Shown here piece by piece: positions 1-10,586 of a stretch of DNA of 10,586 nt. The number at the start of each line of letters is the position of its first letter. The first letter of the stretch is position 1. The position numbers and the translations under genes were made by a program. This DNA is from Candidatus Thorarchaeota archaeon. Lineage in GTDB: Archaea; Asgardarchaeota; Thorarchaeia; Thorarchaeales; Thorarchaeaceae. Under the pieces are notes generated by a model. The model saw only the letters and a list, made by a program, of their open reading frames with translations, was not told the DNA's origin and ran no database searches. The stretch covers positions 1 through 10,586 of the forward strand of contig JAOUFI010000077.1 of the NCBI GenBank assembly GCA_029858305.1. The letters are read 5' to 3'.

Positions 1-192
1 TGGCATCAGAACGAGATCATCAAAGGATTTGACTTTTCCAGAGATAGTATAAGGCAGACCACAACGAGAATACTGAGAATACTGTTCAGTGTTAAAGAGT
101 GAAATTGCAACTTTTCGATTGAATTTTCGAGCCTGCAATGCAGCGGTTGCACCAGCCGCTCCGCACCCAATTATTGCTATACTCTCAACCAT
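1..192 (-). CDS. FAD-dependent pyridine nucleotide-disulfide oxidoreductase (CoA-disulfide reductase / NADH oxidase family), N-terminal part, runs off the left edge
   Basis: Not in the ORF track. Manual translation from ATG at 192: MVESIAIIGCGAAGATAALQARKFNRKVAISLFNTEQYSQYSRCGLPYTISGKVKSFDDLVLMP. It has the Rossmann GxGxxG FAD-binding motif and the YSRCGLPY motif carrying the single redox-active Cys typical of CoADR/Nox/Npx. Confidence 0.9.
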   Translation of the reverse strand, partial: MVESIAIIGCGAAGATAALQARKFNRKVAISLFNTEQYSQYSRCGLPYTISGKVKSFDDLVLMP

Positions 193-358
193 GATGAGGA
201 CCTCTATGTATCTGAATTCTCACCTACAGTCTCATCATATTTAGACTATTGGTTCTACTAACAGCAAAGCATAGACCCAATAAAAGGATCGACCGACCAT
301 TTCTGAGAAATGCTAAAAGGATTCCTTCTCTGGGCTATGCATAGAGCGGCTCATAAGG

Positions 359-375
359 CTTAATGAAACATTAAG
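359..375. promoter_or_regulatory. Perfect inverted repeat, candidate operator
   Basis: CTTAATG-AAA-CATTAAG (7-bp arms, 3-nt spacer) in the intergenic region upstream of the oxidoreductase. Confidence 0.35.
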
Positions 376-425
376 TGTGGTAAGTAATTCCGCCCCATTT
401 TTCCTGCCCTAAAGCAAGGTCAGAC

Positions 426-1970
426 CTATTCCTCAGATATATTATCTTCACTGTTTTTTTCGTCAAATTCGGACTGTGATTCGAGTTCCTCTGATTCCTC
501 ACTTTTCTCCATGATATCTTCAAAAACATCTTCACTCTGTTCTTCTATGCCTTGTTCTGTAGTGTCTTCAGCAGCTTGTTCAGCTTTGGCTTCTTCTTCA
601 GTAGGCATCCATTTCTTACCGTCGGTCATATCAGCCTCGAACTTCTTAATCTGAGTCTTTCGACTGACATAGAGCGCTATTATTACTGCAAGAGACATGG
701 CTGCTCCAATGACAGTGATTGTTGTCTGAAGCGAACTGGCACTATCGCCAAGCAACTGCTGCCAAGTTATGACGAGAAAAGCAAGACCTGCAATATTCAT
801 CACAAAGGAACGAAGAGGAGTACCAACTTTAACAATCTCAGTGACATTTGTATCAACCATTGCTGCAGCAATGACTCCAGCATTATAGTCAGTCGACTTC
901 GTCTTCTTTGCGAGAGTACGGATACTTGCAGACTTTTTGTTGCCCATCACCTTTAGAGCAATTGGCACCTTGGATGCTAGAAGATCTGCATAGTGAACTC
1001 GCGCATCATCTTGCGTAAAATTACATTTCTTGCACATGTCGAGTTTTTTGTTCCAATCTCTCCGGCACTTGGGACACTTATCAACTTGCCATGCGTCGGG
1101 AGCAGTTTCTCGTAAACGTTGTCTGATGATATACTCGCTTACACCACTGTCCTCGCGCGCGGTATCGTCATCACTCTTCTTTTTCTTACCAAACTTTGTC
1201 ATTCCAGCTAGCATTGAGAAAAGAAGTGGAAGTGCACCAATGACAGTCAAATTAGGAAGGGACTTTAGCTCAGAAGCTTTCTTATGGATCCCACGCAGTT
1301 TGTACGCCGTCTTCAAACCATCGAACAGACTCATGAATCCATTACCGACTCCATAAACTACACCGACTGTCGCAATACCGGTTGAAATACCCGTTACAGA
1401 TGTGATAATATCAATTGGTGCAACAGGGATGCTAAAGTATAATGGCTCGCTACTTAGGACATGTTGCGTAGAATCTCCTTCTATATAATACTTGAAGTCT
1501 ACAGTAGCTTGCAAAATTCCAGTGATTAATTTGAGAGGACCATAGTTGAATAGAGACGCAAAATCGATGTACGCATTAACAACGGGGACAGAAGCAGTAT
1601 GATCCACCCAGATCCAGGTCGAGTTCGTCACAGGTTCAATGATTGTAATGGGGAATATTGCTATGCTTTGATAGTAGAACATGATTGTTCCACTAATATT
1701 GAGGTCTTGCGTACTTGATACATTGATCTGTAGTGTCAGTAACATTGGCCCATCCATATTGAGCACTAAAGGAGCTGCCTGGCTATCTGCATCGATGACA
1801 TTCTGTCCATCTAAGGCAGTATACACATAGAGTGTATCATCGTGAAGAAATTCTTCGGGGTTTACAGGTGGTAGAGCACTTGTTGTTGTCAGAGTAGATC
1901 CGCCAATCAATATCATGAATAATAGTGTCATGAATCCGAAGAAAGCAATTTTTGATGGTGAGCGACGCAT
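426..1970 (-). CDS. Hypothetical multi-pass membrane protein with signal anchor, predicted extracellular beta-rich domain, Cys4 zinc ribbon, possible HTH and acidic tail
   Basis: 514-aa ORF. Basic N-terminus plus hydrophobic stretch (MRRSPSKIAFFGFMTLLFMILIGG). Gly-rich hydrophobic segment (IITSVTGISTGIATVGVVYGVG) and a second hydrophobic segment (VIGALPLLFSMLAG). CPKC-x10-CKKC at 1023..1076. Two C-terminal hydrophobic helices and an E/D-rich tail. Confidence 0.8.
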   Translation of the reverse strand: MRRSPSKIAFFGFMTLLFMILIGGSTLTTTSALPPVNPEEFLHDDTLYVYTALDGQNVIDADSQAAPLVLNMDGPMLLTLQINVSSTQDLNISGTIMFYYQSIAIFPITIIEPVTNSTWIWVDHTASVPVVNAYIDFASLFNYGPLKLITGILQATVDFKYYIEGDSTQHVLSSEPLYFSIPVAPIDIITSVTGISTGIATVGVVYGVGNGFMSLFDGLKTAYKLRGIHKKASELKSLPNLTVIGALPLLFSMLAGMTKFGKKKKSDDDTAREDSGVSEYIIRQRLRETAPDAWQVDKCPKCRRDWNKKLDMCKKCNFTQDDARVHYADLLASKVPIALKVMGNKKSASIRTLAKKTKSTDYNAGVIAAAMVDTNVTEIVKVGTPLRSFVMNIAGLAFLVITWQQLLGDSASSLQTTITVIGAAMSLAVIIALYVSRKTQIKKFEADMTDGKKWMPTEEEAKAEQAAEDTTEQGIEEQSEDVFEDIMEKSEESEELESQSEFDEKNSEDNISEE

Positions 1971-2044
1971 TTTCCTTTTTCATCTCCTGAGAGAACACTT
2001 AGACAACTGCGTAATTATTTACAACTGAAAAGGATTTTGTTGCT

Positions 2045-2458
2045 CTATGTAGGATGAGAAGCAGGCGTAGGCTCTCTTGTGCCGCGCACCATATCTGCTA
2101 CTTTCTTTGCAATGGCGTCAAATCCTTCACTTTTTTTCAAAACACCCTTTGCACCTACTTCTACTGCTTGGCTCATTGAATCTTTGTCAAAATACGCAGT
2201 GAGAAGATGAATATTACCTATTCCCAGTTTTGTGAGCACTCGTGTGCATTCTAGACCACCCATCTCAGGCATTTTCATGTCCATCAGTACAAAATCTGGT
2301 GGATGGCCTTGTCTGATGCAATCTTCTGCTATGGAAACTGCATCTTGACCATTTGCAGCAGTGATAATTTCAAAATCATCGAGGAACTTCTTCAAATATG
2401 CATTCATCACTTCATGAATTGCTTGTTCATCGTCGACAATTAAAATTCGAAGTGTCAT
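2045..2458 (-). CDS. Stand-alone response regulator receiver (CheY-like) protein
   Basis: ILIVDDE acidic pocket, VLMDMKMPEMGG with the phosphoacceptor Asp, conserved Thr (LLTAY) and Lys (GVLKK). No output domain. Confidence 0.93.
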   Translation of the reverse strand: MTLRILIVDDEQAIHEVMNAYLKKFLDDFEIITAANGQDAVSIAEDCIRQGHPPDFVLMDMKMPEMGGLECTRVLTKLGIGNIHLLTAYFDKDSMSQAVEVGAKGVLKKSEGFDAIAKKVADMVRGTREPTPASHPT

Positions 2459-2607
2459 ATCTGATTCCCCACATTATAAACTCAAAAAGCAATAAGCTAG
2501 ACACCTTATCAATAGTGTGTTTAGATGATTTGGCAAGCAATGGGATGGGTCATTCACGAACCTATTTATCCTACTTGACACACGAGTCCAAAAGAGGTGC
2601 TTGCCAT

Positions 2608-3696
2608 ATGGTCTTTACACGAATGCCCTTAGAAATATGGTTCGATGAATATCAGTTTGAGGTCGATTATGATATAGGCGAAAGTGGAATGAAGTTCCAT
2701 TCAGTGAAGGAACTAGGAATTGACCTCAATGAAGTTGAATTGCGCTATGGATATCATCTAGGAAATCCAAATCTCAGAAAGGAGATAGCTAAACAATATA
2801 GAGGAATGACTCACGAAAACGTTGCTGTAACTACAGGTGCAAGTGAAGGTAACTTTGCTGTCATCGGGCATCTTGTTGGCACAAAGGATCATCTAATCGT
2901 TGAACATCCTACATATCCTTCTTTATATCAAATACCTAGGTCTCTTGAGAGAAACCTCACGTTATTCAAATTGACTTGGGATAATGAGTTTAGACCAGAT
3001 ATGGACAAGCTTCGAAAACTTGTCAAGCCAAACACCAAATTGATCACCCTGACTCATCCCAATAATCCTACTGGCTCTGTAATAACCGAGAGTGAATTGA
3101 AAGAAGCAATTGAGATCGCAGAGAATGTTGGAGCATATCTAATGGTTGATGAGACCTACAGGGACATGATGTTTGATAGTCCTCCACCACTAGCCGCGAC
3201 TATGAGCTCTAATGCAATTAGCCTAACAAGTATGTCAAAAACTTGGGGACTTCCAGGGATTCGTATTGGTTGGGTGGTTGCAGATACACCAATCATTGAA
3301 GCGATTCGAGCTGTGCGTGAACAAGTGACAATCTGTAATTCATCCTTGGGTGAAGCAATAGCATTAGCAGTTTTGAAAAAGAAAGAGCCGCTACTTAGAG
3401 GTTTGCGCAAGTCTATGCTGTCCAACTTCAAGATTCTTAAAGGATGGATGGACAATCAAGAGTGGCTAGAATGGATTGAGCCAAAAAGCGGAGTAGTTGG
3501 AGCACCACGTCTTACACGCGGGGGAAGTACTGATGCGCTCTGTACGCTGTTGGTGACAAAATATCGCACTTTTACAGTCCCTGGTTCGCGCATGGAACTT
3601 GATGGGCATCTCCGAATAGGTTTTGGTGGTGAGCACGAGGAGCTTGTCAAAGGACTCGATCAACTTCAGTTGGCTTTGAAAGAAATTCATCAATGA
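2608..3696 (+). CDS. PLP-dependent aminotransferase class I/II
   Basis: Motifs VTTGASEG, EHPTY, THPNNPTG, MVDETY and SMSKTWGLPGIRIG (PLP Lys), plus C-terminal LRIGF. Start moved from 2398 to the in-frame ATG at 2608, which follows an AAGAGGTG RBS (2592..2599) and avoids overlap with the divergent receiver gene. Confidence 0.92.
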   Translation: MVFTRMPLEIWFDEYQFEVDYDIGESGMKFHSVKELGIDLNEVELRYGYHLGNPNLRKEIAKQYRGMTHENVAVTTGASEGNFAVIGHLVGTKDHLIVEHPTYPSLYQIPRSLERNLTLFKLTWDNEFRPDMDKLRKLVKPNTKLITLTHPNNPTGSVITESELKEAIEIAENVGAYLMVDETYRDMMFDSPPPLAATMSSNAISLTSMSKTWGLPGIRIGWVVADTPIIEAIRAVREQVTICNSSLGEAIALAVLKKKEPLLRGLRKSMLSNFKILKGWMDNQEWLEWIEPKSGVVGAPRLTRGGSTDALCTLLVTKYRTFTVPGSRMELDGHLRIGFGGEHEELVKGLDQLQLALKEIHQ

Positions 3697-3755
3697 ATAA
3701 TTGATAGGAGTTCATTAACACTCGTTCAGATGCAAGTCTGGAAGCTGTGTGTCAG

Positions 3756-4247
3756 ATGAAACAATTGAAGGATGCGCTTGAGTACGAATCTGAGATAGGC
3801 TGGACTAATATCATTCATCTGACACCCGATTCTCAAGGAGTAAATGTAAAATTCAGAATATTCAAAAGAGGAGCCACAAGACAGGTGACTTCCAAATCTT
3901 CAGGCAGAAAACACAAAATCGCTACTTTTGAAATTGCAGATTCAACAGCTAGAATCAATCTGGTTCTTTGGAATGACGATATTGACCTGTTAGACAACGA
4001 TGATGACTTTTACCTTCTGAATGGATATGTTACTCTCCATGATGAGTGCATGAGTCTTTCAAAAGGAAGAAATGGTGCAATCAGAAAATCAAGCACATCA
4101 ATTGGGCCTATGAATGACAACATCGATATGAGTCGACCCTTTATTTGGAAACCAAGACGTCGTACTTCTCGTTCGATCACTAGTCGAACTCTAAATGGCT
4201 CATCCGGCCGCGAGGCACGAAGATACACTTCACGGAAGTCCTTTTGA
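3756..4247 (+). CDS. Single OB-fold ssDNA-binding protein (crenarchaeal SSB / hSSB1-NABP-like) with basic Arg/Ser tail
   Basis: LTPDSQGVNVKFRI...IADSTARINLVLWND...NGYVTLHDECMSLSKGRNG matches the simple-SSB OB-fold pattern (D-x-T-G/A-x-I-x-L-x-L-W). The start is either GTG 3747 or ATG 3756. Confidence 0.8.
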   Translation: MKQLKDALEYESEIGWTNIIHLTPDSQGVNVKFRIFKRGATRQVTSKSSGRKHKIATFEIADSTARINLVLWNDDIDLLDNDDDFYLLNGYVTLHDECMSLSKGRNGAIRKSSTSIGPMNDNIDMSRPFIWKPRRRTSRSITSRTLNGSSGREARRYTSRKSF

Positions 4248-4287
4248 GGTTGAATAAGTATAGCACTGAGTGTAGGGTGCTATAAAC

Positions 4288-5187
4288 ATGAGATTGAGGT
4301 TTCGAGAGGATGAAACGCCATATCCTATTGCCATTGTAAAAGGACGCCTAAGACTCAGTGGTCTTACTGACCAAGAAACATCTAGCATCATTGAAGGTTC
4401 TCTGCTGGAAACATCAACACCAGATACTTGGACTGAGGATGACCTTATCAGATCTATTGAAGGCTTGCTCGAAAAACACTCCAGAAAGATCCGAGACAAT
4501 TTCAGGTTATTGACTACTTATGAACAGTTTCGCGGGAAAACAAACTCGACTCCATCACTTATTCTTGCACTTGAAGGCGCGTCAGCAACTGGCAAATCAA
4601 TGCTAGCGATAGAGCTAGTCCAAGATCTTGCAGCTACTCGGTTCATAAGTACTGATACCATTCGACAGGTCCTAAGAGGAGTTTATGACAGACAGAGTCA
4701 TCCAGAGTTGTTTTGTCATACCTATCAAGCTTACAAGCATAAACAGTCAGGTGATTCATCACTTGATCCAATAGTTCGAGGCTACATCGCCCAGTCGGAG
4801 ATGTTAAAGTCACATATTCAAGATTTAGCTAAACGAGTTAATGAAGAAGGAGCGATTTCAGTTTTTGAGGGAGTTCACCTTCGGCCCGGAATACTCAAGG
4901 GCATTAACACAAACGTCCTCGAAATCGTCATCAATCCAACTTTAAACACTCATAGATCAATGTTCCTGAGCAAGCAGAGAGCGGCTAAATTAAGAACTGT
5001 GTCGAATAATCTATCAGTCAGAACTCAAGAATTCGAAGCTACACGAAAAATTCAGGAATACTTGATATCTCAAGCGTTACAAAAAAAGGTACCCATCATT
5101 GAAATGGAAAGCTATGAAGAGGCTAAAAAGGAGATTTATGGACATATCATTAACAGTGTGAAAAGTACTCTTAAGAAAGCCAAATAA
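4288..5187 (+). CDS. 2-phosphoglycerate kinase-like P-loop kinase
   Basis: Degenerate ATP-cone-like N-terminus (TPYPIAIVKGRLRLSGL), Walker A LEGASATGKS, ISTDTIRQVLR, PELFCHTY and FEGVHLRPG. These match archaeal 2PGK-family motifs. The substrate is not established. Confidence 0.8.
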   Translation: MRLRFREDETPYPIAIVKGRLRLSGLTDQETSSIIEGSLLETSTPDTWTEDDLIRSIEGLLEKHSRKIRDNFRLLTTYEQFRGKTNSTPSLILALEGASATGKSMLAIELVQDLAATRFISTDTIRQVLRGVYDRQSHPELFCHTYQAYKHKQSGDSSLDPIVRGYIAQSEMLKSHIQDLAKRVNEEGAISVFEGVHLRPGILKGINTNVLEIVINPTLNTHRSMFLSKQRAAKLRTVSNNLSVRTQEFEATRKIQEYLISQALQKKVPIIEMESYEEAKKEIYGHIINSVKSTLKKAK

Positions 5188-5202
5188 TAGGGTGAATGGG
5201 CT

Positions 5203-6597
5203 ATGAGTTGGAAAAATGATTCACTTGACAGACTCTTTAATCCAGACTCGATTGCAGTGGTAGGTGCTTCAGACAAGCCAGACAAACTTGGAGCTCTTTC
5301 GTTACTAGCACTGCGTACATTTGAAGGCAGTGTTGTACCTGTAAATCCAAGAATCAAATCTATTCAAGGTCAGAAATGTTTCCCAACTGTAGAATCGATA
5401 GGATCTCCTATAGACCTGGCAATTCTTGCAGTTGGACCACAACATGTTTTGCCAGCTTTGGAAGACTGTGCTAGAAGTACCGTAGGAGGAGCAATCATTT
5501 TCTCAGCAGGTTTTAAGGAACTAGGAACTATTGGATTAGAGCATCAAATCCGTGTAAGAGAGCTTGTAGAAGATGCACATATCGCTGTAATTGGACCAAA
5601 CTGTCTTGGAGCAGGCAATCCTGCAATTAATCTTAATGCTACTTTTTTTCCACACCCAACTCCATTGAAAGCTGGTTCAGTTGCGATGGTAAGTCAAAGC
5701 GGAGGAGTCACAGGTCTGATGCTATACCGTGCTTCTGATATCGGACTTGGTGTTTCTAAGTTCGCAAGTGTTGGTAATAGAGTAAATATTGATTTTCATG
5801 ATATGGTGCGTTACTTACGTCATGATCCACTTACTGAAGTCATATGTTTGTTTATTGAAGGGACAGAGTATGGTCGAGAGATGACAAATGAGATAGCAAG
5901 AACAACGCCGGAGAAACCGGTGATTGTTTACAAAGTTGGAAAGACACCAGCTTCTCGAGATGCTGCTCTGAGTCACACTGGTAGTCTTGCAGGAAATGCA
6001 GAACTATACAGCGCTGCAATAAAGCAATCTGGAGGTATTGAGGTGTCTGGAGTGGAGGATATGATAGATTTAGGATATGTAATATCGACATGCAAAAACC
6101 TACCCTCTGGAAACAACGTGGCAATCCTAACACATACTCTCGGTATTGCACTCATTGTGGCACAAACACTCGAAGAGAACGGAGTAAAGTTACCAGTCCC
6201 GACTGAACGAACTGCCAAGTTGATACAAGAAAGTCTCAGAATGCCCTTAGAGTTTCCAATTAAGAATCCTATTGATTTACTAGCAACTGGTTGGGCGAAT
6301 CCAAGAATCTTTGCAGACGCTTTTCGACTTGTTTTGCATGAAAATCAATACAATGCTGTTGTTATCGTCTTCTCCCCTAACTATCAAGAGAGCATCGGAG
6401 GAGGTATGCCGGCGAAGGAAATAGTGGAGATAACTCGAGAGTGTGATAAACCGGTTGTAAGTGTATTAACCTCACCCAATACCCGTAAACCTCCAGGTTA
6501 TGAAATCCTAGAAAAAGGGGGTATCCCATTCTTTGCAAGTCCACAGAGGGCTGCAAGAGCTCTTTCAAATGCAATCAGACTTTCTCAACGAGAATGA
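5203..6597 (+). CDS. acdA: ADP-forming acetate/acyl-CoA ligase alpha subunit (ACD alpha family)
   Basis: LFNPDSIAVVGAS CoA-binding start, IIFSAGFKE, VIGPNCLG, SQSGG, ASVGN, SHTGSLAG with the phosphorylated His, and KNPIDL. GGGTGA RBS just upstream. No ATP-grasp beta domain. Confidence 0.9.
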   Translation: MSWKNDSLDRLFNPDSIAVVGASDKPDKLGALSLLALRTFEGSVVPVNPRIKSIQGQKCFPTVESIGSPIDLAILAVGPQHVLPALEDCARSTVGGAIIFSAGFKELGTIGLEHQIRVRELVEDAHIAVIGPNCLGAGNPAINLNATFFPHPTPLKAGSVAMVSQSGGVTGLMLYRASDIGLGVSKFASVGNRVNIDFHDMVRYLRHDPLTEVICLFIEGTEYGREMTNEIARTTPEKPVIVYKVGKTPASRDAALSHTGSLAGNAELYSAAIKQSGGIEVSGVEDMIDLGYVISTCKNLPSGNNVAILTHTLGIALIVAQTLEENGVKLPVPTERTAKLIQESLRMPLEFPIKNPIDLLATGWANPRIFADAFRLVLHENQYNAVVIVFSPNYQESIGGGMPAKEIVEITRECDKPVVSVLTSPNTRKPPGYEILEKGGIPFFASPQRAARALSNAIRLSQRE

Positions 6598-6600
6598 ATT

Positions 6601-6627
6601 AAAAAAAAACCGCTGCAGGTGCAGCGG
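6601..6627 (-). terminator. Hairpin plus oligo-U terminator downstream of trpB2
   Basis: The minus strand reads CCGCTGC-ACCT-GCAGCGG-TTTTTTTTT (7-bp GC-rich stem, 4-nt loop, 9 U). It lies about 35 nt after the trpB2 stop, between convergent genes. Confidence 0.75.
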
Positions 6628-6661
6628 CGAGAAAACGAAAATGAACCATAATATTACACAC

Positions 6662-7975
6662 TCATGAGGACACTGAGTTTAGAGTCCCATCCAAAAGAGC
6701 GCTGTATGCGGACATGTCAAAGTGTCCGTGACCGGAGAGATTGAACACTATAACGCGTTCCTCATTCCTCTTCTTTGCTTCAAGTGCAATATCGATTGTA
6801 GCTTTAATCGCATGTGCCGACTCAGGAGCAGGGATAATACCCTCAGTCTTTGCAAATAGCGCACCTGCTTCCAGAACTTCAATTTGATTAAATGCGCACG
6901 GCTTGATTCGTCCTTCTTCAGCTAGGGCACTGATTGTAGGGGCTACACCATGATATCTGAGACCTCCTGCATGAATTTTTGGCGGGACAAAATCCGCTCC
7001 AAGTGTGTGCATTTTGAGCTTCGGTGTCATACCAGCAGTGTCCCCAAAATCATACTTGTATTGACCCTTTGAAAGAGATGGGCATGCCTCTGGTTCCACG
7101 GCAATATATTCACAATCTCGAAACCGACTCTCAGCTAAGAATGGATATGTCATCCCAGCAAAGTTGCTCCCGCCACCCACGCACCCGATCATGACATCAG
7201 GTGTTTCTTCAATAGAGGCTAATTGAGCCATAGTTTCTTGACCAATAACTGTCTGGTGAAGGAGTACAAAGTTCAGTACTGATCCTAATGTGTACTTTGT
7301 GTTGGCATTACTGAGAGTGTCCTCTAGAGCCTCACTAATTGCGATTCCAAGAGTGCCTGGATGATCAGGCTGTTCTCGATTGATTTTGCGACCAAACTCT
7401 GTTCTATCAGAAGGACTTGGAACTATCTCTGCACCATATGTTCTCATCAACATGCCACGATATTGTTTCTGCTGATAGCTTATTCGCACCATGTAGATCA
7501 TAGCTTCCATTCCAAAATAGGAACAAGCAAGTGCAACTGCACTTCCCCATTGCCCTGCTCCTGTTTCAGTAGCAAGTCTTTCGATCCCCTCCCTCTGAGC
7601 ATAATACGCCTGAGCGATAGCTGTGTTTAACTTATGACTTCCAGTAGGGGAAACATCTTCTCTTTTGAAGTAGATGCGGCATGGAGTTTTGAGTTTCTGT
7701 TCAAGACCCACAGCCCGTTGAAGAGGTGTTGGTCGTCCTGATCGAATGAGAATTTCTCTCACTTCCTCAGGCATTTTAATCCGTTTTTCTTGTGCCACCT
7801 CTTGTTTTACGCATTCCTCTGGAAACAAAGCAAGTAATGCTTCTGGTCCAATAGGTTCCTCTGTTGCGGGATTCAATGGTGGAGGAAGTGGATTATCCAA
7901 GTGTGGCAGTATGTTCACATAGTGAGTAGGCGTTTCTTCTATGTCTAAGAGTATTCTTGTTTTGGATCGATTCAA
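6662..7975 (-). CDS. trpB2: TrpB2 (stand-alone tryptophan synthase beta-like PLP enzyme)
   Basis: N-terminal extension [18 protein letters not shown] (PLP Lys), [59 protein letters not shown] and NLSGHGHFD are TrpB2 hallmarks. TTG start with an AAGGAG RBS at 7985..7990. Confidence 0.96.
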
Positions 7976-8141
7976 ATTGTTAAACTCCTTTTACTCGCCA
8001 TTTCTGTAACACAGCATCTTATCTGAAAATCAAATGAAAATGAATCGCAAACCATGAACCTACTAGGAGGAGAACATGGATCGAGTTGCATCAGAAAAGA
8101 AGAGGTGCTGTGATAACAAAGTGCAGTGTGCGGTATAAAAG

Positions 8142-8195
8142 CTAAACGGGCCAGATGAGGCCCTTGTGCCATTGGCCAAGACACACTCGCGTCAT
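8142..8195 (-). CDS. Putative Trp-containing leader peptide (uORF) of trpB2, MTRVCLGQWHKGLIWPV
   Basis: ATG ACG CGA GTG TGT CTT GGC CAA TGG CAC AAG GGC CTC ATC TGG CCC GTT TAG. Two TGG codons (8169..8171 and 8151..8153). GGGTG RBS at 8203..8207. It is the first ATG after the putative TATA box. Confidence 0.55.
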   Translation of the reverse strand: MTRVCLGQWHKGLIWPV

Positions 8196-8238
8196 GCTTC
8201 AACACCCAGAAACGGTTCAATAAGCAAAATTCGACCAT

Positions 8239-8246
8239 AATATAAA
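8239..8246 (-). promoter_or_regulatory. Putative archaeal TATA box for the leader-trpB2 transcript
   Basis: TTTATATT on the minus strand would place the start site near 8215, just upstream of the uORF RBS. The AT-rich element could also be read on the plus strand. Confidence 0.45.
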
Positions 8247-8442
8247 TATTGTGCAAAAAAGAGCAGTGATGCATACTTCTGTACATCGGTATAGGAGCAA
8301 CTTTCTTTATCAAATTATGTCAAAGATAGAGCCATTTGTGCGAATCAGCTATGTGTTCTATAGGAAATATTGGGTACAGGTCATCAAACATATATTTACA
8401 ACTTAATGAGATGATATGTACAATATTAAAAATGAGACATAA

Positions 8443-10425
8443 GTGATGCAAGAAATGACAAAGGAAAAAAGAAATGCATTTGAGCAAGAACTTGACATTT
8501 CGATGCTAAAGATGTTTTTTGATGCATCTCCACAAGGAGTCCTTGTCATAAATGATGGAATTATCATCTATGCGAATAAGAGCATCACTGAAAACTTGGG
8601 AATCACTCCAGAAACAGCAATAGGAAAAGATGTTGCTCTTTTGGCGAGTGTCTTGAATTCTGCCGAACGGGAAGATGCACTGAAACGTTTCATGCAGCTC
8701 TCTCAGGGCAAGAAGAAGAGAGATAAAGAGCGTTTAAAGTTCGTTAATAGAGATGGTGTGAAACGTGTTCTAGAGATAACAGCCCATTCATTGAATGTTT
8801 CTGGTAAGAACTACGTGATGACATATGGCGTTGATGTTACTGCTGATGAGCTGTCAAGGGAAACAGTCGCTAGAGAGAGAAAGGCCTACAGCATAATAGC
8901 TGAAGCCGCACTCAGCACAGAAGACATCTCAAAAGTATGCCAGCAATTGCTCGAAGGATTAATTGAAACCCTCGGTTTTGATCTCGGAACAATAAGATTA
9001 TTCCATGAAGAGGGGCAAACCCTTGATCTAATAGCATCAGTCAATATTGAAACCAGTAGTGCGACGAAATCTATTCGAAAAGACGATCCCAATCTTCTTG
9101 CATCTAGAACTGCACGAACCTTGGAACCTCTTGTAGTACCAGATGTATCGAAATTAAATGATCCGCAAGATAGGATGTCACGAGCAAAGGAGCTAGGAAT
9201 CAGAACCCTAATCTTCTGGCCAATAATCGGAGGTGACAATTCACTTCAAGGCATTGTGAATATTGCCTCGCGAGGAATTCGCACGCTGGAAGAGGATGAT
9301 AGAATTTTCTTTACTACTGTTGCAGGCATGTTCGCTACAATACTTGAAAGAAGAAAGGCAGAAGAGGACTTAAAGGTCAGTCAAGAGCAATTCATTGCCT
9401 TTGCAGACAATATGCCAGGTCCTGTCTTCATTAAGGATCATGAGTCACGAGTGCTTTTTGTAAATCATTTCATGAAGAGTAAAGCACCAAATTCTAATTT
9501 TCAAGATCTCACAAATGTTGATCTTTTCAGAGAAGGAATAGCAAAAGACCTGGATGATGAGGATCAGAAGGTCCTTGCGAGAGGACCTATTGATAGAATT
9601 CAAGCAGTGAGGGGAAGGGATGGAAAAACTAGGACATTTCGTAGTCATAAGTTTCCTATTTTCCGGGAAGGAAAACCACCTTTGATTGGAGGCTTCTCAC
9701 TCGACATAACTGAACAAATAGAGGCTGAGAAGGCAATCAATGAAGCTAGAGCTAGAGCGGAATGGGCTACTGATCTTATGTCACATGACTTGAATAATAT
9801 GCATCAGGGCATCATGGGAAGTTTAGAACTTATGCTTCAAGATCCATCTTTGCCATTGAATCTTAGGAATTTAGCTGAGAATGCTCTTATGCAGGTAAAT
9901 CGAAGTGTATCACTAATTGCGAATGTAAAGAAGTTCTCACTAGTAAATAAGGGCGACGTTGTCCTCCAGAAGACTGATCCAGCACAGTCATTAACTGCAG
10001 CGATTGAGATACTGAAACAGTCTTTCCCGATGCGAGAAATAAAAGTAATTACAAATATCTCCACAGGAGAATACTGTATTATGGCTGACGAGTTTCTTCA
10101 AGATGTCTTCTACAACATTCTTCATAATGGAGTGAAGGCAACTCTAACAGATGAGGTCACTCTGGAAGTAGAAACCAATCTCATAGAGGATGGCGAGTTC
10201 CTTAGAATGGACTTCACCGATTGGGGCGAAGGAATCGATGATCGGATGAAAGAAAATATCCTTTCTGGATTAGATGAGCGAATTCGAAGAATCTCAGGTG
10301 TTGGATTGACGCTCGTGAAACAGATAGTGGATATATATCATGGAAAAATATGGGTCGAGGACCGTATCAAGAATGATTATTCAAAGGGGGCACGTTTCGT
10401 CATCCTATTACCCTATGGATGCTAA
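8443..10425 (+). CDS. Soluble PAS-GAF-PAS sensor histidine kinase
   Basis: PAS (FFDASPQGVLVI...YANK...GVDVT), GAF (LGTIRLF...LIFWPI...GIVNIAS), PAS (FADNMPGPVFIKD...SLDITE), H-box DLMSHDLNN, N-box VFYNILHNGVK, G1 DWGEGI, G2 SGVGLTLVKQIV. No obvious transmembrane helix. The start is GTG 8443 or a nearby ATG (8446). Confidence 0.94.
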   Translation: MMQEMTKEKRNAFEQELDISMLKMFFDASPQGVLVINDGIIIYANKSITENLGITPETAIGKDVALLASVLNSAEREDALKRFMQLSQGKKKRDKERLKFVNRDGVKRVLEITAHSLNVSGKNYVMTYGVDVTADELSRETVARERKAYSIIAEAALSTEDISKVCQQLLEGLIETLGFDLGTIRLFHEEGQTLDLIASVNIETSSATKSIRKDDPNLLASRTARTLEPLVVPDVSKLNDPQDRMSRAKELGIRTLIFWPIIGGDNSLQGIVNIASRGIRTLEEDDRIFFTTVAGMFATILERRKAEEDLKVSQEQFIAFADNMPGPVFIKDHESRVLFVNHFMKSKAPNSNFQDLTNVDLFREGIAKDLDDEDQKVLARGPIDRIQAVRGRDGKTRTFRSHKFPIFREGKPPLIGGFSLDITEQIEAEKAINEARARAEWATDLMSHDLNNMHQGIMGSLELMLQDPSLPLNLRNLAENALMQVNRSVSLIANVKKFSLVNKGDVVLQKTDPAQSLTAAIEILKQSFPMREIKVITNISTGEYCIMADEFLQDVFYNILHNGVKATLTDEVTLEVETNLIEDGEFLRMDFTDWGEGIDDRMKENILSGLDERIRRISGVGLTLVKQIVDIYHGKIWVEDRIKNDYSKGARFVILLPYGC

Positions 10426-10470
10426 GTAGATTCAAAGGATGGAAAATCTCCCAGAACGGTTAAATCTCAC

Positions 10471-10478
10471 TTTATAGA
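10471..10478 (+). promoter_or_regulatory. Putative TATA box of the small GTPase gene
   Basis: TTTATAGA about 30 nt upstream of the GTG start, a spacing consistent with a short-leader archaeal transcript. Confidence 0.4.
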
Positions 10479-10505
10479 TAGACGAGGAAATAGGAAGTAA
10501 AATAC

Positions 10506-10586
10506 GTGGAAGATGATGGGCCTGAATATGTTCTCAAGATGGTTGCTCTGGGTGATGGAGCCGTAGGAAAGACCAGCTGTATTATG
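10506..10586 (+). CDS. Ras-superfamily (Rab/Rho-like) small GTPase, N-terminal fragment, runs off the right edge
   Basis: Not in the ORF track. Manual translation: (M)EDDGPEYVLKMVALGDGAVGKTSCIM, which contains a beta-1 strand and the G1 box GDGAVGKTS. An in-frame TAG at 10491 bounds the start. Confidence 0.85.
   Translation, partial: MEDDGPEYVLKMVALGDGAVGKTSCIM

Follow-up and report, generated by a model that had tools for sequence, protein, structure and literature searches.

The gene trpB2 of a Candidatus Thorarchaeota archaeon, which encodes a stand-alone TrpB-like pyridoxal phosphate (PLP) enzyme, is preceded by a leader that may sense tryptophan supply. The leader lies in a 10,586-nt stretch of DNA (GenBank assembly GCA_029858305.1, contig JAOUFI010000077.1, positions 1 to 10,586; hereafter the window) and contains a short upstream open reading frame (uORF1) whose ribosome-binding site, frame and Trp codon recur in front of trpB2 throughout one Thorarchaeota family. 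We give a probability of roughly 0.55 to the reading that this is a translated, structured leader reporting charged tRNA-Trp through the position of the ribosome. The anatomy described below rests on comparison between genomes; the mechanism is inferred.

A conserved reading frame with a Trp codon upstream of trpB2

The comparison drew on 21 trpB2 loci from the same genus as the window, one g1-type second copy in a genome of genus g25, and 37 loci from other genera. Two loci cut by contig ends (L190 and L207) were left out, leaving 57 that could be judged; these represent 13 genera of a single Thorarchaeota family. Every genome used is a metagenome bin, and relatives are not independent of one another. 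All leader coordinates are read on the minus strand, on which the trpB2 5' untranslated region (UTR) measures about 240 nt. The coding features of the leader are as follows, SD denoting a Shine–Dalgarno sequence.

8203..8207, minus strand: SD-like site of uORF1, GGGUG, 7 nt ahead of the AUG
8142..8195, minus strand: uORF1, 17 codons plus TAG, MTRVCLGQWHKGLIWPV followed by the stop; ATG at 8195..8193, TAG at 8144..8142
8169..8175, minus strand: CCAAUGG, invariant across loci; CAA at 8174..8172, Trp codon UGG at 8171..8169, AUG of uORF2 at 8172..8170
7972..8172, minus strand: uORF2, 66 codons plus TGA, in the −1 frame relative to uORF1, with its AUG inside CCAAUGG
8182..8188, minus strand: GAGUGUG block, 9 nt upstream of the second AUG; 8187..8181 form the 5' strand of helix P1

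At 57 of 57 loci the element retains all its parts: an SD-like site, a start codon in frame, a Trp codon and a GC hairpin that covaries. The start is ATG in 51 loci and GTG in 6; the Trp codon stands 7–10 codons in, preceded by 7 or 8 codons in 54 of 57 loci, and is followed by two variable codons, the GC hairpin and, usually, the stop, which is TAG in 51 loci and lies 9 codons past the Trp codon in 40 of 57. The distance from the in-frame ATG to UGG, measured in 51 of 56 loci (the rest having GTG), is 21, 24, 27, 30 or 33 nt and so changes in steps of three only. Pairing energies with a generic anti-SD probe average −7.4 kcal/mol for the uORF1 sites (n = 56), compared with −6.4 for the trpB2 sites and −1.4 for control UTR windows.

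A preliminary description of this DNA, made from the window by itself, had proposed a Trp-sensing leader peptide ahead of trpB2, with a TATA-like box, a GGGTG ribosome-binding site and Trp residues at positions 9 and 15. All of these are present at the coordinates it gave, with the two TGG codons at 8171..8169 and 8153..8151 and the uORF1 stop 166 nt ahead of the trpB2 TTG start at 7975. It had also allowed that such a frame could arise by chance; a frame with its own SD-like site before the gene of a Trp-making enzyme, kept in phase at 57 of 57 loci, goes beyond chance. The upstream regions of orthologs retain the uORF and one invariant Trp codon. The second Trp codon is not conserved: as a general feature the position-15 Trp falls away, being shared only with L002 among the 21 same-genus loci.

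Variation along uORF1 lacks three-base periodicity (0.82/0.83/0.76 ahead of the Trp codon), which suggests that the peptide itself is not under selection and is what would be expected if only the frame and the codon matter. What uORF1 keeps, to judge from the alignments, is its frame, its Trp codon and the invariant nucleotide string C-CAA-UGG. Six of the seven bases of CCAAUGG never vary (C, C, A, U, G and G); the remaining one, the fourth, reads A in 49 of 50 distinct sequences. CAA stands directly 5' of UGG in 55 of 57 loci and is itself preceded by C in 56 of 57, though the codon to which this C belongs encodes G, Y, C, S, R or L. The UGG side of the middle helix of the leader is fixed while its partner varies (G-C in 34 cases, G-U in 9), so the constraint appears to act on UGG itself. 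In genus g25 the C-CAA bases lie outside every predicted helix. A further Trp codon at +2 (W-x-W) occurs in 13 loci, where this UGG overlaps the G-run of the hairpin.

An overlapping second reading frame

An internal AUG at CCAAUGG occurs in 54 of 56 loci and always has G as its next base. It opens uORF2, which measures 44–85 codons (median 62) in all 54 loci that have the internal AUG; in the window its stop codon (TGA, 7974..7972) overlaps the trpB2 start (TTG, 7975..7973). The −1 frame remains open for 130–254 nt past the Trp codon in 56 of 56 loci, including two loci of genus g21 without the AUG. It is open to at most 20 nt from the trpB2 start in 54 of 56 loci, compared with about 11.5% of dinucleotide shuffles, a generous figure because the shuffled segments are already stop-free. 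In 49 of 56 loci uORF2 terminates no more than 20 nt to either side of the trpB2 start. Selection for an exact overlap of this stop with the trpB2 start was considered and rejected: the 4-nt overlap (NUGA) is found in 15 of 56 loci, the window included, the other 41 stops lie anywhere between −47 and +62, and all three phases are represented among the stop frames.

Substitutions in uORF2, counted within genera over 32 non-independent pairs (mostly from g25), fall on the three codon positions as 214/283/280, with 150 synonymous and 415 nonsynonymous changes. From these counts it seems that translation of the uORF2 frame matters and that its product does not. We also considered uORF2 as a genuine small protein and rejected this, there being no constraint at the amino-acid level and no NCBIfam match for the enclosing ORF of 113 amino acids.

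The GAGUGUG block is a possible SD for the second AUG. In the form GAGYGUG it is kept in most genera whatever amino acids uORF1 encodes there, 9–11 nt before the second AUG; the g1 version looks like uORF1's own SD-like site. Within the leader stem-loop the block is paired, as is the second AUG.

One genome (G053, contig C6) carries two trpB2 copies (L205 and L208) about 10 kb apart, each with a leader. Both leaders read CCACUG rather than CCAAUG, and the internal AUG is therefore gone. In L208 the usual UGG has in addition become UGU, and a UGG two codons further on is retained.

Secondary structure of the leader

All folds reported here are equilibrium thermodynamic predictions. The structural features of the window are listed below.

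8125..8131, minus strand: P1 3' strand, GCACACU, pairing with 8187..8181 and closing the stem-loop around uORF1
8148..8163, minus strand: P2 apical hairpin (hairpin B of the preliminary description), GGGCC-UCAUCU-GGCCC, 8163..8159 pairing with 8152..8148
8207..8215, minus strand: P0 5' strand CCGUUUCUG, forming a 9-bp helix with 8006..7998 and running into the uORF1 SD GGGUG
7998..8006, minus strand: P0 3' strand CAGAAAUGG, 10 nt upstream of the trpB2 SD
8092..8105, minus strand: C/U-rich tract CCUCUUCUUUUCUG, directly 3' of the leader stem-loop

Single-sequence folds from all genera place the whole of uORF1 inside one long imperfect stem-loop of about 90 nt with three helices. P1 pairs the GAGYGUG block (codons 2–5) with a GCACACUC-like block 10–45 nt past the stop, the middle helix pairs AUGG(N) with (N)CCAU, and P2 forms the apical hairpin. 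A leader covariance model was built from 15 sequences, and covariation was counted on its 45-row alignment; because the alignment leans towards its model, the following figures are upper bounds. Stem-loop cells are paired in 84.9%, compared with 35–41% for slid partners and 76.4% for shuffles (0 of 500 reach the observed value); 16 of the 23 pairs show changes on both sides; and the covariation score is 0.304, compared with 0.177 for shuffles (0 of 500 reach it) and 0.03–0.09 for slid partners. The P1 duplex (B:C) has an energy of −17.8 kcal/mol, compared with −12.9 for shuffled sequences. A test of cognate against non-cognate P1 strands discriminated weakly, because the paired blocks are common to several genera, and was superseded by the counts from the covariance-model alignment. 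The window's own stem-loop folds at −37.9 kcal/mol (z = −1.86) and is the weakest of its genus by model score.

Hairpin B, which the preliminary description had placed over the second Trp codon, is present in the window and covaries across loci. The corresponding helix 4 of the alignment is 100% paired, with one pair that is C-G in 17 sequences, U-G in 17 and U-A in 10, and compensatory variants such as GCGUCC/GGACGC and GGCUCC/GGAGCC are seen. Other parts of the proposed attenuator fare less well. Hairpin A, drawn over the first Trp codon, can form in the window at −7.7 kcal/mol and is not conserved: it forms only where the sequence reads GGCCAAUGGC, and its energy is about zero in 12 g25 loci. 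The alternative stem GGCCAAUG/CAUCUGGCC that was to exclude both hairpins does not recur across loci, and neither constrained folds nor duplex-energy tests gave a conserved case of mutually exclusive pairing. The T-rich tail after hairpin B is specific to the window, where hairpin and tail were flagged together.

Beyond the stem-loop, a long-range helix (P0) pairs the extreme 5' end of the leader, uORF1 SD included, with a segment 6–33 nt upstream of the trpB2 start; in g1 it takes the form of an 18-nt inverted repeat with arms about 200 nt apart. The P0 sequences differ across genera and the pairing is retained, cognate strands pairing at −21.5 kcal/mol and non-cognate ones at −14.2 (standard deviation 4.0); the P0 (A:D) duplex has −20.4 kcal/mol, compared with −11.9 for shuffled partners. 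The uORF1 SD is mostly paired in the full-length fold, with an unpaired probability of 0.26. A C/U-rich tract is found in every genus (CUUCUUCU in g1, UUGUUUUCU in g25) and forms the 5' strand of the next domain in minimum-free-energy folds. The stem-loop that encloses uORF1 and the P0 helix, like uORF2 and the TGTACA boxes described below, go beyond the preliminary description.

Distribution and related leaders

The 13-nt core motif occurs once in the 3.04-Mb genome, and the 21-nt pattern occurs once each in 21 of 28 same-genus genomes, namely those in which trpB2 was found. The covariance model matches all loci of the family except three of genus g28, and it gave no match ahead of trpB2 at ten loci from other families (L018–L028). 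A broader model (R2) matches 16 of 151 sampled genomes of the phylum, all in this family and only beside trpB2, with one match per genome except in G053, which has two matches for its two trpB2 copies. The leader model with stricter filters found nothing in 125 genomes of 26 other families. A pattern match with two mismatches in G097 (L173) was set aside as chance, since that genome yielded neither trpB2 nor a model match. Among the matches listed from a wider pattern scan of contigs, only L085 is relevant, being identical to L005 over the leader; the other listed matches, from unrelated bacteria, were rejected as chance.

A genome of g25 (contig C109 of G079, L172) has two trpB2 genes: its own (72% identical) and another (78%) preceded by a leader of the g1 type; the latter copy reflects either a binning mix or transfer.

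A leader of another kind precedes trpB2 in f3, another Asgard family, all four genomes of which (L224–L227) have a trpB2 55–59% identical to that of the window. It lies at −230 to −65 relative to the trpB2 start (in L224 at about 2870–3020, minus strand) and begins AGGGUGU-AUG-CCU-UGG-AAU-GGG, encoding a short ORF MPWNG... From an AUG inside UGGAAUGGG, in the +1 frame relative to the short ORF, runs an overlapping ORF of 45–46 codons that ends [F/I]WAWRWL[T/L]WP and stop, 67–75 nt ahead of trpB2; a T6–T7 run and then the trpB2 SD follow. Four Trp codons among its last ten are invariant, and the neighbouring codons vary. Within the Thorarchaeota family, uORF2 of g16 (L178) ends early, at −43 from trpB2, with W-Y-H-W-W, and so resembles the f3 design. 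Together, the f3 and g16 sequences make a Trp-codon reading of the whole class more likely.

In the sister family f21 (L228, L229 and L230) neither leader stands before trpB2. A TGTAC(A) box lies there directly upstream of a TTTAAATA element, at about −95 from the trpB2 start; because f21 has the box without either leader, the operator-like box may be older than the leaders.

Promoter, operator-like boxes and genomic context

Upstream of the leader, the window contains the following elements.

8239..8246, minus strand: TATA-like box TTTATATT; a TTTATAA-like element is kept in all genera
8280..8285, no strand assigned: TGTACA box, ahead of the TATA box
8270..8275, minus strand: degenerate second TGTACA copy, reading TATGCA on the minus strand

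Conservation of the leader starts about 23–27 nt 3' of the TATA box. The promoter as originally called agrees with both the conserved box and this boundary, and we infer a transcription start near 8217/8216. At least one TGTACA lies within 110 nt before the leader in 52 of 56 loci, and at least two in 26 loci, against a genome-wide density of 0.23 per kb; an alignment of same-genus loci shows TGTAC unchanged in 17 of 17. Initiation is probably also controlled by a regulator that binds TGTACA. The box may match the TRP box consensus.

In another contig (C203 of G000), three TGTACA boxes (L223:1908-1945) lie directly 5' of a regulator gene (L223:1983-2291, plus strand), the only TGTACA-flanked regulator gene noticed. 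Its 102-amino-acid product is a PF0610-like protein with a winged helix and a zinc ribbon (PF21476, 64.9 bits; PF23470, 41.1 bits). This protein is a candidate autoregulated factor for the TGTACA boxes of trpB2.

The gene served by the leader and its ribosome-binding site are located as follows.

6662..7975, minus strand: trpB2, 437 amino acids, TTG start, stand-alone TrpB-like PLP enzyme
7985..7988, minus strand: trpB2 SD, GGAG, 9 nt ahead of the TTG

The product scores 675.6 bits against NF009057 (cut-off 366) and 630.3 against TIGR01415 (cut-off 518.85), which places it in TrpB2, and falls below the cut-off for canonical TrpB (TIGR00263, 196.8 compared with 392.45). In the window's genome (3.04 Mb, 88.9% complete) the TrpA, IGPS, PRAI, chorismate-binding and TrpD families were not found. 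Across the family, TrpA exceeds its cut-off in 6 of 86 genomes and trpB2 is found in 59 of 86, with orthologs in 13 of 16 genera. On both grounds, the missing trp families and the rarity of TrpA, trpB2 is taken to be an orphan. Orphan trpB2 genes have been taken as a sign of another, unidentified function, as a paper on TrpB2 evolution notes (PMC1854888).

A gap of 467 nt separates trpB2 from a divergent gene for a cytoplasmic PAS-GAF-PAS histidine kinase (8443..10425, plus strand). Two neighbours on the other side are convergent with trpB2, a 2-phosphoglycerate-kinase-like gene with a score below cut-off (4288..5187, plus strand) and an ADP-forming acetate-CoA ligase alpha-like gene (5203..6597, plus strand), and trpB2 is therefore monocistronic. 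A stand-alone receiver-domain protein is encoded 5.5 kb away (2045..2458, minus strand). Neither an Rfam family at gathering scores nor a tRNA was found in the window, and a permissive Rfam search of 7900..8340 returned chance-level rows from unrelated families (best E-value 2.8).

In one sediment metatranscriptome run (X1), in which 0.04 of words were present, a single contig could be placed; it is 177 nt long, spans 7936..8112 and is 96% identical with 7 differences, and therefore comes from a close relative rather than from this strain. The contig is a weak hint, compatible with a long UTR; DNA may occur in such libraries, and contigs show neither ends nor strand.

Proposed mechanism and competing explanations

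If the leader reports charged tRNA-Trp, it might work as follows. On nascent RNA, a ribosome would start uORF1 before P0 forms. With ample Trp-tRNA it would run through uORF1, open the stem-loop and unmask the second start, letting a succession of ribosomes translate uORF2 along the UTR and past the trpB2 start region. With Trp-tRNA short, the ribosome would wait at UGG, sitting on the uORF2 start and, being within one footprint of the uORF1 AUG, blocking new starts; with traffic halted, the UTR would fold into its P0-closed form and trpB2 would be read from its own SD. The overlap of UGG and AUG would be the decision point, setting the number of ribosomes that enter uORF2. The output could take either sign, and could lie in translation, in completion of the transcript or in its stability. 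Traffic through uORF2 might hinder trpB2 starts and hold P0 open, in which case Trp shortage would turn the gene on; or it might help, via unfolding, coupling or shielding of the nascent RNA from termination, in which case the gene would follow Trp supply, unless uORF2 were entered by a hungry-codon frameshift. The lower trpB2 SD accessibility predicted in g1 with the uORF1 start blocked fits the first output; the other genera show no such effect. On balance we lean towards trpB2 expression rising when Trp is short.

Several observations weigh against a leader that reports charged tRNA-Trp, beginning with the Trp codons themselves: uORF1 has a single Trp in 43 of 57 loci and tandem Trp in none, and the UGG could be a by-product of a second AUG followed by G. 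Neither coding nor, in g25, the helices can account for the invariance of C-CAA, which extends to two synonymous positions. The stop frame of uORF2 is not fixed, which favours neither coupling nor occlusion in particular. Trp codons occur less often than expected in uORF2 (pooled, 12 observed and 34 expected; per genus, about 6.5 and about 9); a specific avoidance of Trp codons there was not adopted, the pooled deficit being strong and the per-genus one small, and it is at most a hint. The folds, equilibrium predictions as they are, also give little sign of a switch. Exchange of partners among four segments was tried and rejected, since A:C (the uORF1 SD region with the P1 3' strand) reaches −11.2 kcal/mol compared with −11.4 for shuffles, and B:D (the P1 5' strand with the P0 3' strand) −12.4 compared with −13.3. 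A classical 2:3 antiterminator was looked for and not found: masking the footprint of a stalled ribosome leaves the downstream fold unchanged. Nor did partition-function folds of 56 UTRs give a consistent change at the trpB2 SD, and an equilibrium SD-sequestration switch was rejected as a general mechanism; accessibility of this SD is 0.51 in the free UTR, 0.48 with a ribosome stalled at UGG and 0.49 with one at the uORF1 stop, and drops modestly, to 0.39, with the uORF1 start region occupied, mostly in g1.

Some of these points would fit a relay that is independent of Trp, in which uORF1 opens the stem-loop and uORF2 carries ribosomes through the structured UTR to give constant expression, the UGG arising in the uORF1 frame only through the G that follows the second AUG. 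Such a relay, which we consider possible and rather unlikely, would account for the near-universal AUG and the constant G after it, for two unconstrained peptides, and for the lack both of a conserved alternative pairing and of a Trp-dependent change in predicted accessibility. It sits less easily with the fact that the gene served makes Trp and that the element is found nowhere else in these genomes, and with the G053 copies, both of which lack the second AUG and retain Trp codons; nor does it anticipate the unrelated-looking f3 leader of trpB2, with four Trp codons in ten, or the W-Y-H-W-W ending of uORF2 in g16. If the leader were instead a structured RNA sensor, acting like a riboswitch or by binding a protein or tRNA, CCAAUGG and the stem-loop would be the functional parts and the reading frames incidental. 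Invariance at the nucleotide level, synonymous positions included, a strongly conserved secondary structure and the absence of amino-acid-level constraint speak for it. We nevertheless hold it improbable: uORF1 keeps its SD-like site, start, frame and stop at 57 of 57 loci with its start-to-UGG distance changing by threes, a frame of 44–85 codons is held open against an expectation of about 11.5%, and there is no Rfam match.

Two further alternatives were weighed. In one, a hungry-codon −1 frameshift at C-CAA-UGG, shortage of Trp-tRNA would cause a slip into uORF2 and translation on to trpB2, turning the gene on, with the upstream GAGYGUG block and the GC hairpin 4–5 nt downstream as stimulators. 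The −1 frame is indeed open at 56 of 56 loci, including the two without an internal AUG; the invariant C before CAA would restore first-position pairing after the slip; an SD-like block lies 9–11 nt upstream and a stable, covarying hairpin just downstream; and the expected sign would follow without an inhibitory uORF2. Downstream structure, expected 5–9 nt after the slip site of a −1 frameshift cassette and here 4–5 nt after UGG, and an open −1 frame are present, but the slippery heptamer is absent: C CAA UGG is no X XXY YYZ sequence, and slipped pairing would be mismatched at the middle position. With a P-site codon of CAC or CAU, as in g21, re-pairing would be worse still, the long uORF of f3 lies in the +1 rather than the −1 frame, and ordinary initiation at an AUG with an SD-like site would be the simpler account, so that we rate a frameshift as a slim prospect. 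The other alternative is a TnaC-like sensor of free Trp, in which the uORF1 peptide would arrest the ribosome at its stop when free Trp is high; the preliminary description had pointed to the terminal W-P-V-stop. In its favour, the Trp never varies, P followed by V, T, I or A and a stop closes 43 of 57 peptides, and the spacing of nine codons from Trp to stop recurs in 40 of 57. Yet the conserved residues, fixed spacing and Pro-stop of a TnaC-type peptide are not found as a set: residues apart from W (and Q) change freely and show no codon periodicity, only Q-W is conserved, the ending differs in 14 of 57 loci, and uORF1 of L012 terminates four codons early. The Pro codon, penultimate in 43 of 57, forms the 3' arm of the hairpin, which explains its conservation. 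With no constraint at the amino-acid level and these divergent endings, a TnaC-like role is very unlikely.

Comparison with known regulatory systems

In bacteria, a textbook way to control amino-acid genes is through leader peptides, and it relies on transcription and translation being coupled. The thorarchaeal element shares with bacterial TrpL-type attenuation a short ORF with its own ribosome-binding site (here predicted) in the 5' UTR of a Trp-biosynthesis gene, a Trp codon in the 5' strand of a hairpin, and a peptide that is otherwise unconstrained; the f3 leaders also carry a cluster of four Trp codons. It differs in its archaeal host and in having one invariant Trp codon across the Thorarchaeota family, with no conserved terminator/antiterminator alternative found and no hairpin-plus-U-run terminator seen to be conserved, a C/U-rich tract following the stem-loop in every genus; here, moreover, a second, overlapping uORF runs to the gene start, a long-range helix masks the leader SD, and there is no Rfam match, whether to Trp_leader or to any other family. 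Of the marks of TrpL, then, the conserved ORF frame is found in this family, multiple Trp codons and mutually exclusive hairpins are not, and multiple Trp codons reappear in the separate f3 leader. In translational attenuation of the ermC/cat type, as proposed here, the position of a ribosome on the leader would decide the use of a downstream start masked by a stem-loop. The signal would be aminoacyl-tRNA rather than a drug, however, and the masked start is that of another uORF rather than of the gene, whose predicted SD accessibility is unchanged with a stalled ribosome.

The layout of a short first uORF and a long, out-of-frame second one that reaches the main start, tied in its logic to amino-acid supply, also recalls the eukaryotic two-uORF control of ATF4 and GCN4, here in an Asgard archaeon. 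Unlike that system, starts here would be led by an SD rather than found by scanning, the uORFs overlap, and the signal would be a hungry codon rather than phosphorylation of an initiation factor; the likeness concerns layout alone and implies no homology. Closer to hand, Huber et al. are said to have described termination–reinitiation coupling at overlapping gene pairs in archaea. The 4-nt overlap of uORF2 and trpB2 in the window and 14 other loci resembles this arrangement; at 41 of 56 loci the stop lies elsewhere (−47 to +62) and its frame is not fixed. Gaps of about 20 nt nearly abolish such coupling, according to a published study (PMC10666635).

TGTACA boxes adjoin the trpB2 promoter here and may correspond to the TRP boxes of the TrpY system. 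TrpY reportedly represses trp genes and trpB2 in Methanothermobacter, in work attributed to Xie and Reeve in 2005 and Karr et al. in 2008. It binds TRP box sequences in promoter regions, and little is known of archaeal trp control beyond TrpY (PMC6737238). Searches of the literature available to us turned up neither a leader-peptide sensor in archaea nor any account of uORFs in Asgard genomes.

To these systems the analysis adds a family-wide conserved leader bearing a Trp codon in Asgard archaea, together with its anatomy of two overlapping uORFs, three helices and operator-like boxes, which is open to tests by point mutation. The multi-Trp leader of f3, in a second Asgard family, suggests that the principle is older and wider than this one leader. 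The arrangement also bears on the role of orphan TrpB2, since the gene would be wired to a Trp-related signal where the rest of the pathway seems to be missing. Should the frameshift alternative prove true, it would amount to an amino-acid-sensing programmed frameshift acting as a gene switch in an Asgard archaeon. As matters stand, the element looks like a ribosome-operated Trp sensor of a kind not yet described in archaea, and its closest functional analogues would be the leader-peptide attenuators of bacteria or translational attenuators of the erm type.

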